Shown here: piece after piece, positions 19,038 to 59,129 of the stretch
Position numbering within the stretch: the first letter of the stretch is position 1
Layout: every line of letters begins with the position of its first letter
Source: Octopus vulgaris
Taxonomy: Eukaryota
Direction of reading: 5' to 3'
DNA length: 64,000 nt
Assembly: GCA_951406725.2 (NCBI GenBank)
Contig: OX597834.1
Location: 5,952,001 to 6,016,000 of the forward strand
The notes under the pieces: generated by a model
Seen by the model: only the letters and a program-made list of their open reading frames with translations
Database searches by the model: none
Told to the model about the DNA's origin: nothing
Translations under genes and position numbers: made by a program

Positions 19038-19416
19038 TATATATAAGATAGATACAGTCATAAGTGTGTGGTTAGATGTCTGCTTCCAAACCACTTGGTT
19101 CAGGGTTCAATCCCACTGCATGGCGCTTTGGGCAAGTGTCTTCAACTGTCACCTTGGTCTGATAAAAGTGAGGGAATTTGGTAGACAGAAACCGAAAGAA
19201 GTCCATCATGTGTGTGTGTGTGTGTGTGTGTGTGTGTGTGTGTGTGTATGTGTGAGTGTGTGAGTGTGTGAATGTGTGTGTGTGTCTTTGTTTGTCCAAT
19301 CCCCACTGCTTGACAATTGGTTTTGGTATGTTTATATCACTCTAACTTAGCGGTTTGGCAAAAAGCCACTGACAGAATAAGAACCAGGCCTTCAAAAGCA
19401 CAACTACTAGGGTTTT

Positions 19417-19736
19417 CGTTTTTGGATTTGGTTTGCAAGATTCTTTATATGAGTTCGTGTGTTGAAGCATATTCTGTTGTGTCTGGGGAGAGTCATTCTC
19501 TTTTAGTGCCTTATTATTTAACACACTCACCGGTAAAATTTCCACTTACTTCTTATTTTTTATTTTCTAAAATTTTCGTTGCATCTTGCAACCTTTTCAA
19601 TAGTCTTGAGTCAAGACTATTGAAAAGAGTCAAGACTATTGAAAATAAAAAATAAGAAGTAAGTGGAAATTTTACCGGTGAGTGTGTTGCATAATAAGGC
19701 ACTAAAAGAGAATGACTCTCCCCAGACACAACAGAA
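19417..19736. mobile_element. Asymmetric inverted-repeat element with hammerhead-like motif (Penelope pLTR-type), family P1 copy 1
   Basis: About 55-nt unique left end plus long inverted arms; 12-bp TSD tactagggtttt (19405-19416, 19737-19748); inserted in an old family A SINE. Confidence 0.8.
19567..19603 (-). ncRNA. Minimal type I hammerhead-like motif, U3-A8 core variant
   Basis: cta-TTGAAAA-g-gttgc(aagat)gcaac-GAAA-attt-tag. Confidence 0.55.
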
Positions 19737-20506
19737 TACTAGGGTTTTGTCGTTCAACTAAAATTTTCCAAAGCAGTGCCCCAGCATGACTACAGTCCCT
19801 TTTTCTCCCTTTCCCTCTATGTCTCTCTCACCCTCTCTCTCTTCACCTTACTCCCTCATTCCTTCCCTCTCTCTCTCTCTCTCTCTCCCACTCGTTCCTC
19901 TGTCCCTCTGATTTCCTTTTTCTTTCTCTCGTATTCCTTAATCCCTTCCCCCCTCTCTTGTATTCTTCAGTCTCTTTTGCTTCCCTTCTTCTCTCTACCT
20001 CCCTTGCACCTTTTTCTCTCTCTCAAGCTTTGGTCCTTCCGATTTCTTTCCCCTCTCTCCTAATCCTTAGTCCTTCTGCCCTCTTCAACTCCTCCTCTCT
20101 CCTAACCACATGATCACTATCTGGTTCAGGCATTTGTCCATTGAATATATATAATTCTATTTCATATGTTACATTCGTCCAATAGATGAAAGACCCTTTC
20201 TGTTGTTTACTTATTTGTTTTCCTATATGTACACTTATTTGCCTTTCCCAGAGGCTTACTGCTTTTAGTCCCTGACCCAGCTAGTTTCAAGTAGTACTGG
20301 AGGTAAGTGGACAAAACTACAAAGACATTCCGGACTCCAGCTGAAGATGCAATTGGCTGCAAATGATCTGTGTGTCTTGTTTTGTCCTGTTTGCTGTTGT
20401 CATGCTATCATCCTTTTTTTCTGCATGTTGTGTTTTGATAGTTTCCATTTGTTGCATTCTTTCTGTTCTACCTTCAATATATATATATACATGTGTGTGT
20501 GTGTGT

Positions 20507-20820
20507 GTGTGGTGTATTGGCCCAGTGGTTAGGGCAGCAGACTCACGGTTGTAGGATTGTGGTTTCAATTCTCAGACGGGGCGTTGTGAGTGTTTATTGA
20601 GCAAAATCACCTAAAAGCTCCATGAGGCTCCGGCAGGGGGTGGTGGCGATTCCTGCTGTACTCTTTCACCATAACTTTCTTTCACTCTTTCTTTGGTTGG
20701 CCTGCTTGCTTAGCCAGCGGGGTGGCATCATTTGAAGGCTAAAACAATGCAGAGCGAATTGTGACCAGCGATGTGTAGCAACATCTGATAGCCTGGCCAG
20801 TCACGGTGATCATGGTGATA
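20507..20820 (+). mobile_element. SINE family E head with a third tail type
   Basis: tggcccagtggttagggcagcagactcacgg...aagctccatgaggctccggcagggg...tail ending cacggtgatcatggtgata. Confidence 0.8.
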
Positions 20821-20904
20821 TATATATATATGAATTTTAAAAAAAAAACACCTTTATCAATTCAAAATGAACAATTAAATTACACCATCTAGAAAATTAC
20901 ATAT

Positions 20905-20975
20905 TTTTATTTTATTTTTTTTATTTTATCTAGTTTCAGCTCACAAGCTGTGGCCATGCTGGGGCACTGTCATTT
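20905..20975 (-). mobile_element. Extreme 3' end of the CR1-group LINE
   Basis: gtgccccagcatggccacagcttgtgagctgaaactagataaaataaaaa, matching 62980-63050. Confidence 0.75.
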
Positions 20976-22635
20976 AATAGAAATACTAAATATAAAATAA
21001 CAACAATATACCGATGATTAAGTAATGTGCAAAATAATAAATAAAATATATATATCTGCACAGGTTGGCTGTATGGTATGAAGTTTGCCTCCCAACCACA
21101 TGGTTCTGGTTCAGTCCCACTGTGTGGCACCTTGAGCAAGTGTTTCCTACTATAGCCTGGGGTCTACCAAAGCCTTGGATATGGATTTCATTGGTGGAAA
21201 CTGAAAGAAATCCATTGTCTGCATAACTTTGTTTCCCCACCACCACCACCACTTGACAACTGGTGCTGGACTATTTACATCCCTGCAACTTAGTAGTTCC
21301 GCAAAAGAGACTGATATGTTTGATATGATAAATAACTTTCTTGTGTTGAAGAGAATTTCAAAGACTTGTAGGGTGGCTGTTTGATTATGTATCACAAATG
21401 AACTACATAGTTGTTTTTTTTTTTTTGATAGGCATTTATTATGCCCAAAGAATTCTTACATTTTTTTTGTGTATTATTTCCACCTCTGAATTGTCTGTGT
21501 TCTAAAATAAAAATAAAAACCATTCTAGGTTAGAGTTGAAGTTTTTATCTGTTTCTATAAAAGCAATTTTACTTTCCATAACGCAAGAAATGTTGCAACA
21601 TTTTGTATAGTTTTAGCTTTAGTTTTAGATATACATATATGTATATTTTTTATTGCATAAGATTTATCTCTGCTGTTTTTATTTTAGTAAATTGTAATAT
21701 GGATTTTCCTTTAAGAAACAATTATTTGGAGGTAGACTTTTATCTATACTGAGAATAATGGAACGATTTTGCCAGCTGGTTATGTCTTCATTGTAAGAAG
21801 TATTACATGTTTAGAATATCTCACACAACAGACAGGGAACAAATAACTATGAGCTTAATGAGTTAATTTGGCTTAACACATTCAATAGAAGGAATATCAG
21901 AAGCAAATTAAAAATAATCATTTGGTGAGGAAAAAGCATTACTAGTCAATGTCTAATATTATTTCAGTCATTCCAGCAAGTCTGGGTGATGAATTCATGC
22001 ATGTTTCAGTTTCATTAAACCTTTTCAGCAAAGCATTGATTTTGCTATTACTGCTCTGGCAAACAAGATACTATGAGCATCAGAATAATTAGGAGAGAAT
22101 CACTAACTAGAGGTGCAAAAACCTGGCTTCTAGAATATAAATCCCAGTAGTTATGAGTTGCTCTTTGGCAAGGCCTGGCCCCTGTTCAGCTGCCCTGCCA
22201 CGGATATGGCAAAGTCGTGGGGCTGCAGCATGGTGGATTGTAAACAGGCAGTAGGAGAACTCAACTGAGCCAATGGTGCTTTTTACATTGAAACTGAGTG
22301 GAGGGTCCCTGGAAGATCATTGGCCAGGATCACCAAGCTCTATCAAGAGAGTAACTGCAACGTAGCCATGAGGGTGGTATCCATGGTTGTGTAATCAGCT
22401 AATGAAAGATTTGTGAATCAAGCTCTCAATTCAAGACAAAAGACAAAATCTGCCAAAGGATGGCTGCGAGTGAGACACCTTGTCTTCATTTAGACATCTT
22501 TCTAGAAGAAAGAAATTCCAAAATAATATCTGCCTTGTTACCAAAATTGAAGATTTTGCTGTTGTTTGTTTCTGGATAACTTCTCTTTGTAGAGGAGAGT
22601 CCTAGTGGGGTTGTGCAAGCTGTTATTGACCTTAA

Positions 22636-57572: not shown

Positions 57573-57692
57573 AACATGCATACATGCATACATGCATACA
57601 TACATACATATATACATAATACATACATACATACTTGCATACATACATACATACATACATACATACATACATACATACATACATAATATACG

Positions 57693-58160
57693 CAGGCATA
57701 AGTGTGGCAGTGTGGTAAGAAGCTTGCTTCTCAGCCACATGGTCCAGGGTTCAGTCCCACTGTGTGGCACCTTGGGCAAGTGTCTTCAACAAAAGCCTTG
57801 TGAGTGGATTTGGTAGATGAAAACTGAAAGAAGTCCATCGTGCATATATATATATATATATATATATTTATATATATATATATACATACACACACACACA
57901 CATATATACAAAACACATTAACAGACCCTAAAAGATTGCTTTAAGATACACCGCATCTTTTATAAATATGCCTTCTGGAGTGGCTATAGGTGCAGGCGTG
58001 GCTGTGTGATAAGTAGCTTGCTTACCAACCACATGGTCCTGTGTTTAGTTCCACTGCATGGCATCTTGGGCAAGTGTCTTCTACTATAGCCTAGGACCAA
58101 CCAAAGATTTGTGAGTGGATTTGGTAGACAGAAACTGAAAGAAATCCGTTGTGTATATAT
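57693..58160 (+). mobile_element. Two SINE family A 5' halves (57693-57845, 57987-58155)
   Basis: Family A heads ending in (TA)n. Confidence 0.85.
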
Positions 58161-58199
58161 ATATATATATATATATATATATATATATATATATATATA

Positions 58200-58388
58200 C
58201 CGGAGTAAACACATAAATGTGAAACAAGGTGGAAAAAAGAGTACTAAAATACCAGTGGTAGAGTAATATGCTTTATTTAAAGCAGCAGAAAATTCAACAA
58301 AACCTACCAAAAACTGTCCAATGAACGGCAATGGGAAACTCAGAGTAACAGGTTTTGTTGAATTTTCTGCTTCTTTAAATAAAGTATT
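58200..58388. mobile_element. Family P3 asymmetric inverted-repeat element with decayed hammerhead (58309-58357 +)
   Basis: Arms ctttatttaaagcagcagaaaattcaacaaaacct / aggttttgttgaattttctgcttctttaaataaag; ctgt-CCAATGA-...-GAAA-ctc(a)gag-TA-acag. Confidence 0.65.
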
Positions 58389-58420
58389 TATATATATATA
58401 TATGTATATATATGTGTGTG

Positions 58421-58730
58421 TACAGGGTGTCCCAAAAACAGTATGCACACTTTAGCAGCTGATAACTCTACTGAGACTTTTTCTTTCCACATGAAACCCA
58501 CTGGAATTAATGAAGCTTTGAACAAAGGAAATTCATTCTAAGATGCTCCTGGAAGTGTGAAAATGCAGTTGAAGTGCAAAGACAATTTAAGAGGGAGTTT
58601 CAAACAGATCTCTTAATGCTACTTACCAGTTTGAAGCCAATAGAACTGTTTAGAATGTCCATGAGAAGCATTCTGGAAGACCACAAACATTGACAGACCC
58701 CACAAAGCAACATATCACCAAAGATGTAAC
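58421..58730 (+). mobile_element. Tc1/mariner-type element left end with transposase remnant
   Basis: TA|CAGGGTGTCCCAAAA terminus; FEANRTV*NVHEKHSGRPQT remnant. Confidence 0.6.
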
Positions 58731-59129
58731 TACATGTGGACCGTTGGTGATATTTGTTTCTTGTTTTTTTTTCTTTCTTTTGGACTTTCCTATGTCTCCT
58801 GTTTCCAAAGAAGAGCTTTGCTCGAAATGTAAAACAACCACTCTTTCCTTTCCTTTTCTGAGCATTTTATTAATACTTTGCATGTTTTTACCTGTTGTCT
58901 TTTTATCCCTATTTTTTAAAAATTATCTATATATATATATATATATATATATATATATATATATATATATATACACACACACATAAATGCCACACGCTGT
59001 TAAATGACTTACTTCTAGACTTGCTTTCGGTTTCGATATGTTTATTTTAGTAGTTTTGACTTTAAGAGTCCCTCCTAGAATGTGGCATTTATGTGTAATA
59101 ATGCCCTCTATAAAATAAAAAATGAATAC

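Follow-up and report, generated by a model that had tools for sequence, protein, structure and literature searches.

Predicted minimal hammerhead ribozymes with differing 3:8 base pairs in the ends of Penelope-like elements of Octopus vulgaris

A 64,000-nucleotide (nt) stretch of the Octopus vulgaris genome (assembly GCA_951406725.2, contig OX597834.1, positions 5,952,001 to 6,016,000 of the forward strand; called the window below, with positions counted from its first letter) carries several families of short repeats that resemble minimal hammerhead ribozymes, and many of their cores depart from the canonical CUGANGA. The locus raises the question of whether these motifs are hammerheads, to which elements they belong, and whether the base pair between core positions 3 and 8 (3:8), which takes different forms in different families, has been maintained by selection. 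Judging from sequence, the motifs are minimal type I hammerheads located in the pseudo-long terminal repeat (pseudo-LTR) ends of Penelope-like elements (PLEs), i.e. a known kind of motif. We consider it probable that selection has maintained the 3:8 pair in active master elements, one family with a swap to G3-C8 among them. All genome-wide counts given here come from the genome of 2.8 Gb in 227 contigs.

Hammerhead motifs in the window

The window is rich in microsatellites, and nearly all of its long open frames are simple repeats. The families are labelled A (23901), B (19567, 36064 and 53203), C (39460), D (31358), E (51421 and 58309) and F (58801); I, J, K and M were added later. The cores lie where the original prediction had put them. 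The family A hammerhead (23896-23941, plus strand), which comes from the loose scan described below, has the C3-G8 core CTGATGA at 23901-23907 and a predicted cut after 23936. That of family D (31351-31401, plus strand) has the G3-C8 core GTGAACA at 31358-31364, a 7-bp stem I, a palindromic stem III and a predicted cut after 31394. TTGAAAA, i.e. U3-A8, is present in B (19567-19603 and 36064-36100 on the minus strand, 36137-36173 and 53203-53239 on the plus strand) and in C (39460-39496, minus strand). E is represented by CCGACGA at 51454-51460 on the minus strand and by CCAATGA at 58318 in a plus-strand hammerhead (58310-58357), and F by CCAAAGA at 58805-58811 (hammerhead 58800-58836, plus strand). 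The arm at 53152-53188 (minus strand) reads CTGAAAA and does break the pair (C3.A8), but this is ordinary decay, as C.A is found in 3 of the first 100 genome rows of B. One family had been overlooked, so the earlier list was incomplete: family I, with TTGACAA (U3-A8) at 6331-6370 on the minus strand.

The pattern N3-Y4-G5-A6-N7-N8-A9 ... G12-A13-A14-A15.1 ... U16.1-H17 fits the commonest core of every family. The window copies at 58318 and 58805 are exceptions in that G5 is lost, and CpG decay, the cause proposed originally, is supported in both. Stem I has 3-9 bp and stem II 4-8 bp in A, B, C, D, F and I, and the stem II of E has 2-3 bp with a GNRA loop.

With a loose descriptor, in which N3 and N8 are free, the window gives 10 matches, 9 of them Watson-Crick at 3:8, compared to a mean of 0.92 (maximum 3) in 60 local dinucleotide shuffles. 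When a palindromic stem III is required (strict descriptor) there are 8 matches, all 8 Watson-Crick at 3:8, as opposed to 0.09 per shuffle (maximum 1) in 200 shuffles, where 4 of the 18 matches are paired at 3:8; the reversed and complemented windows give 0 matches. The motif with a relaxed core is thus far above chance. Note that both E copies fail in the scanner as their stem II has only 2-3 bp, and that F passes only if A is permitted at position 5. Stem III is short and palindromic, as had been predicted: 9 of the 10 loose matches have no loop III though 6 nt were permitted. Predicted self-dimer energies range from -0.2 (B) to -10.7 (C) kcal/mol, with none for the decayed F copy. Rfam reports no hammerhead in the window at gathering score, nor among the best 150 of 323 E-value rows, which bears out the expectation that non-canonical cores escape searches based on CUGANGA or Rfam. 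Two matches of the loose scan may be chance, namely 10703-10749 (plus strand, TTGACAA, 6-nt loop III) and 15195-15243 (minus strand, CTGATAA, mismatched at 3:8); no second copy of either was found in the locally collected sequence set, to which this search was confined.

Parent elements and the 3:8 pair

The identity of the motifs as hammerheads and their link to Penelope, both part of the original prediction, are supported. A genome search for GIY-YIG yields many PLE frames, and the motif lies 0.4-1.2 kb downstream of a PLE reading frame, on the same strand, in B, C, D, E, M and J. [quoted passage not shown] Family J is young and has a 781-amino-acid frame, its own U3-A8 hammerhead behind this frame, and direct pseudo-LTRs (in locus L209, 430-885 equals 5217-5672 at 99.3%). 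Many intact 781-amino-acid frames of J are seen in L209 (2245-4587), L210, L211 and L220, with a further coding-looking region upstream of the frame. Family C stands behind frame ends that are 61% alike to J (five loci). An upstream walk from B leads, in L271, to a 665-amino-acid frame whose end is 670 nt upstream of the hammerhead; seven more loci have frame ends. For D, a 2.5-kb inverted pair (L310) has a 238-amino-acid frame above the Pfam GIY-YIG cut-off about 1 kb upstream of the hammerhead, the D parent being known from this endonuclease end only. The parent frames of B and D are 50% identical over 200 amino acids, which corrects the earlier view that the repeats are all sequence-unrelated. 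The full E element (L312) has a canonical core and a 727-amino-acid frame between direct repeats (1-244 equals 3353-3596 at 99.2%); the frame was assigned as PLE from motifs judged by eye and from a weak similarity (21-23%, E about 1e-5) to other frames of this kind.

The upstream region of F extends for at least 900 nt, and its parentage by a PLE is tentative. An endonuclease fragment in L313 was considered as F parent; it lies ahead of an inverted F pair and probably does not represent the parent. Direct pseudo-LTRs were not seen for B, C, D and F, and no PLE frame was found in L311, where two D copies are 6.3 kb apart, or in L290, where two I copies are 5.4 kb apart. The long flanks shared by L112 and L113 were rejected as an element since they look like a segmental duplication. 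The original prediction had spoken of a non-autonomous retroelement system; this would hold for A, which has a separate tRNA-like head and alone looks truly non-autonomous, but not for B, C, D and E, which are 5'-truncated ends of protein-coding PLEs.

At the level of families, 3:8 is C-G in A, E, F and M, U-A in B, C, I and J, and G-C in D and K, and no mismatched family core was found among families A-F, I, J, K and M. Covariation was counted by position because MAFFT fails to align the families to one another. The covariation claimed across families is thus present, with C-G, U-A and G-C cores that are all Watson-Crick; as for pairing in the family consensuses, it is found in every family core, but dispersed copies decay without compensation. 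Among collected distinct copies, a sample biased in that it consists of the best matches to those in the window, the pair is C-G in 28 of 31 (A), 35 of 41 (E) and 39 of 42 (F), U-A in 67 of 82 (B) and 42 of 43 (C), and G-C in 41 of 45 (D). Family I has TTGACAA in 20 of 22 copies, and 711 first-look candidates in the genome.

Pattern searches of the genome are unbiased in this respect, and their tallies cover the first 100 rows per pattern, counted by eye. Family D has 6,048 exact 19-mer matches, i.e. at least 6,048 copies, and 7,079 matches if positions 3, 4, 5 and 8 are free; its first 100 rows comprise 85 intact cores, 15 single changes and 0 compensated ones. Family B has 5,054 matches (93 U-A, 3 C.A, 3 U.G and 1 C.U). 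D and B together exceed 11,000 short exact matches, and Rfam is silent in the window, so standard searches undercount such motifs. Position 4 is U in 76 and C in 23 rows of F (881 matches), and U in 73 and C in 27 rows of E (5,247 matches, with a pattern that favours young copies). C4, originally given as the core of E and F, is therefore a minority state, a subfamily trait and not the family core, and the C4 majority in our alignments of E and F is due to query bias. A derivation of U4 from C4 by CpG decay was rejected, as CTG outnumbers CCA by 69 to 3 in F and by 72 to 1 in E. Query bias also accounts for an apparent C3.A8 subfamily of B (13 of 82 collected copies), which shrinks to 3 of 36 unbiased copies and to the 3 genome rows mentioned.

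Variation within families is located at N7, N17 and loop II. At 31358 and 31363, i.e. D positions 3 and 8 in the window, no letter other than the reference reaches 5% in contigs from four runs and four organisms; these contigs are assembled sequence and silent on expression and RNA ends. The A3-U8 descriptor gives 358 matches genome-wide vs 549 in the reversed control, and no repeated family is evident in the first 100 rows.

It is worthwhile to look at the relatives of family D. A G3-C8 descriptor that excludes typical D copies gives 460 matches vs 370 in the control. Of its first 100 rows, about 35 make up group K, which is older than D and differs from it in N7 and loop II; the 3' flank of one K copy is clearly homologous to D (z 8-12), those of other K copies weakly. 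Family M (C3-G8) is a separate family; in L030 it lies behind an endonuclease end that is 45-52% alike to those of B and D. B, D and M share a stem II scaffold, and their endonuclease ends are 45-52% alike as opposed to 23-39% with other families. Among 81 genome matches of the D/K/M scaffold, the G3 rows have 38 C8, 8 U8, 3 A8 and 2 G8, the C3 rows 13 G8 and 1 C8, the U3 rows 3 A8, 3 G8 and 2 C8, and the A3 rows 6 C8, 1 G8 and 1 U8. B (U-A), D/K (G-C) and M (C-G) thus look like one lineage using all three pairings, and the G3-C8 double change in D suggests selection on the pair.

Probable selection on cutting and its alternatives

The anatomy of the insertions indicates how such elements may spread. 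The 3' ends of the copies fall at two fixed sites, separated by about 57 nt in B, 60 nt in D and about 30 nt in A and C, which match the two internal reverse-transcription start sites shown in vitro (PMC11167929). The 5' ends are variable or clustered, and inverted duplicates are common to A, B, E and I in the window; tails and inverted 5'-truncated copies are described for PLEs (PMC8557442), and the octopus copies match this description. Target duplications of 8-12 bp are found in 4 of 6 window insertions checked; none was detected for the D insertion, and E sits in (TA)n. In 29 of 47 D copies the 5' end falls within a cluster 20-23 nt ahead of position 3, where the sequence resembles a splice acceptor. 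The starts of short D and E copies coincide with, or slightly precede, a pyrimidine-rich site that terminates in YAG and lies upstream of stem I (L310, 2680-2720; L312 minus strand, 60-102). The Penelope intron ends at helix I (PMC4209133; PMC2377424), and the D boundary may equally well be a splice acceptor or a transcription start.

Three B insertions are inverted pairs. That at 19417-19741 has a long tailed minus arm with the 19567-19603 hammerhead, a short plus arm (19613-19741) that has lost stem II, and a 12-bp target duplication; that at 35915-36272 has a U3-A8 hammerhead in both arms; and that at 52998-53334, which includes the decayed arm, has a 10-bp target duplication. In two of the three (19405-19417 and 52988-52998) the target contains CTAGGGTT and lies inside an apparent other repeat, and the third differs. 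The C copy (39407-39625, minus strand) is a pseudo-LTR end terminating in (TA)n, and the D copy (31343-31545, plus strand) a pseudo-LTR end with a long tail. E occurs as a minus-strand copy with a decayed stem II (51329-51469) and as an inverted pair within (TA)n (58200-58390), F as a plus-strand copy (58719-58915) and I as an inverted pair (6305-6560). Paired copies in the window are on opposite strands and therefore form no intramolecular dimer. B pairs have a predicted fold-back of about -185 to -220 kcal/mol, and given both the strand arrangement and the self-folding, cutting is unlikely in inverted pairs. Same-strand neighbouring motifs occur only in full elements and in the rare arrays described below. 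The window copies, being single or opposite-strand and decaying, are likely dead.

The reading that we favour places cutting in the master elements. On the basis of published work, we infer that the PLE protein nicks AT-rich DNA and that reverse transcription begins at two sites a short way 3' of the ribozyme, for which reason even very short copies would carry it. The template is likely uncut RNA since the copies retain sequence 5' of the predicted cut. The ribozyme may cut slowly, as a dimer via the palindromic stem III or aided by the element's protein, and cutting would trim tandem or read-through master transcripts. PLE hammerheads cut poorly in vitro, are dispensable for insertion in vitro and are absent in one PLE clade. 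A compensated double change at 3:8, fixed in a high-copy lineage with differently paired sister families, is the signature expected if cutting is selected, and an engineered C3G/G8C change partly restores the cutting of a PLE hammerhead (PMC11167929).

There are several points that weigh against this reading. Firstly, hammerhead mutants do not block PLE insertion in vitro, and no RNA ends were detected at the cut site in the anole (PMC11167929). Secondly, 6,048 of 7,079 dispersed D copies are intact at all four sites, a decay of about 4% per core site that shows no compensation, so there is no selection on dispersed copies. Thirdly, the Fisher value for the 81 scaffold matches (1e-9) makes the evidence look stronger than it is, because the related copies represent one or two swap events. 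No branch of the endonuclease tree is well supported, the 3' flanks of M and D have no detectable homology, and the frame link of M is based on one locus. Finally, among the parents, the B frame matches Pfam below the cut-offs, the 727-amino-acid E frame has no Pfam match, the F link is one weak endonuclease fragment 1.9 kb upstream (L285, Pfam E 0.11), and no parent PLE frame was found for I.

Some of these points would fit hammerhead-derived folds that no longer need to cut, kept as a site where the PLE protein binds or stalls, or with G3-C8 fixed by drift in one master. Besides the mutants without effect on insertion, copies derived from uncut RNA are in line with this idea, as are the Naiad PLEs, which thrive without canonical hammerheads (PMC8557442), and the C4 subfamilies and the 2-3 bp stem II of E, which are expected to be weak. 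However, the G3-C8 swap requires two transversions, and it is retained both in D and in the diverged K whereas N7 and loop II vary. A mismatched core was seen in none of the families, and the 3:8 pair is part of the catalytic conformation (PMC3088659), so we regard both a fold freed from cutting and fixation by drift as unlikely.

Another explanation, towards which the original prediction leaned, is that of retrozyme-like non-autonomous families spread by circular RNA cut from tandem arrays. Head-to-tail arrays with a retrozyme-like layout do exist (8 D units in L052, 718-2481, and 6 A units in L255, 170-1290), and the tRNA-like head of A and the clustered 5' ends of D and E could be read in the same way. 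Yet the upstream sequence of B, C, D and E leads into PLE frames, the copies are mostly solitary or in inverted pairs and have tails and target duplications, and the motifs are minimal as opposed to the canonical type I motifs of retrozymes (PMC7229834); this makes a retrozyme-like mode of spread very improbable. Chance matches in AT-rich, hairpin-rich repeats are scarcely credible: the descriptor is short and loose genome-wide patterns give hundreds of chance matches, but the strict motif all but vanishes in the shuffled, reversed and complemented sequence, and each family has one sense-strand motif at a known place behind PLE frames.

Selection on the pair in cutting master elements thus remains our preferred explanation. 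A bolder version has, in our judgment, a little less than an even chance of being right: D and its relatives would carry a working natural G3-C8 hammerhead in thousands of copies, one PLE lineage would have used C-G, U-A and G-C, and A would be a tRNA-headed short interspersed element (SINE) borrowing the Penelope machinery and ribozyme. If this version is right, it would be direct evidence for in vivo selection of PLE hammerheads for cutting. B, D and M are a ready three-way test set for the 3:8 pairings.

Known systems, family A and other features

It is instructive to compare the octopus motifs with known hammerheads. Those of metazoan PLE pseudo-LTRs (Cervera and de la Pena 2014, PMC4209133) are alike in being type I with a short stem I, an extra nucleotide before stem II and a palindromic stem III, and in occurring as many families per genome and as opposite-strand pairs 100-700 bp apart. 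The U3-A8 variant is represented there by about 1,300 cases in Schistosoma mansoni, so that U3-A8, the extra purine, the palindromic stem III and the opposite-strand pairs were already published in 2014. By contrast, G3-C8 or C4 is in none of the 56 motifs listed in that paper, whose descriptors were not aimed at them, and the list includes no cephalopod. Poseidon of the green anole (Frangieh 2024, PMC11167929) shares the tail between two reverse-transcription starts, the AT-rich targets and the uncut template, and its study contains a 3:8 rescue test; G3-C8 is engineered there but a natural family core in octopus D, and the Poseidon hammerhead overlaps the frame start whereas that of E lies about 160 nt before the frame. 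Natural core variants (Perreault 2011, PMC3088659) include U3-A8, the viroid U4C and 2-bp stems II; they are mostly not linked to PLEs, and G3-C8 is not named in the available part of that paper. Non-LTR retrozymes and the SINE-like hammerhead repeats of Schistosoma, which combine a promoter with a hammerhead, have short tandem units, a type I motif and a proposed PLE origin (PMC7229834, PMC6765202, bioRxiv 10.64898/2026.07.22.740005). The octopus families differ from both in that they have minimal motifs and few arrays, and the majority still lead into a PLE frame.

A literature search that lacked most subscription papers found no natural G3-C8 hammerhead, only engineered cases. Small PLE-associated hammerheads with a diminished stem III reportedly cleave as dimers (Lunse 2017), and G3-C8 or C4 may be covered there. 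The part that we have not found in print is the natural G3-C8 of family D and its older relatives, and the other features are mostly published.

The family A element (23636-24022, plus strand) is SINE-like and likely non-autonomous: a transfer RNA (tRNA)-like head (23636-23722) is followed by (AAT)n and a PLE-type 3' end with hammerhead and tail. A 5'-truncated inverted copy, whose hammerhead has lost G12, lies at 23434-23617 on the minus strand, and a 12-bp target duplication flanks the inverted pair. The head is found upstream in 9 of 15 A bodies with room for it, and 5 of 5 heads lead into an A body. ARAGORN calls no tRNA in six family A loci, and the putative A and B boxes of the head were judged by eye. 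Heads joined to a PLE-type hammerhead end occur in the window and in L255, L260, L081, L205 and L047, which may point to a Penelope-dependent SINE. Family A may be among the octopus tRNA-derived retroposons of Ohshima and Okada 1994.

Three further features of the window are apart from the hammerhead families. The plus-strand frame of 153 amino acids at 15780-16241 presumably corresponds, by eye, to the end of a reverse transcriptase of a long interspersed element. A full 5S ribosomal RNA (rRNA)-like copy is present at 1662-1780 on the minus strand, and 28S rRNA fragments (9656-9922, plus strand) lie between inverted repeats at 9380-9561 and 9937-10118.

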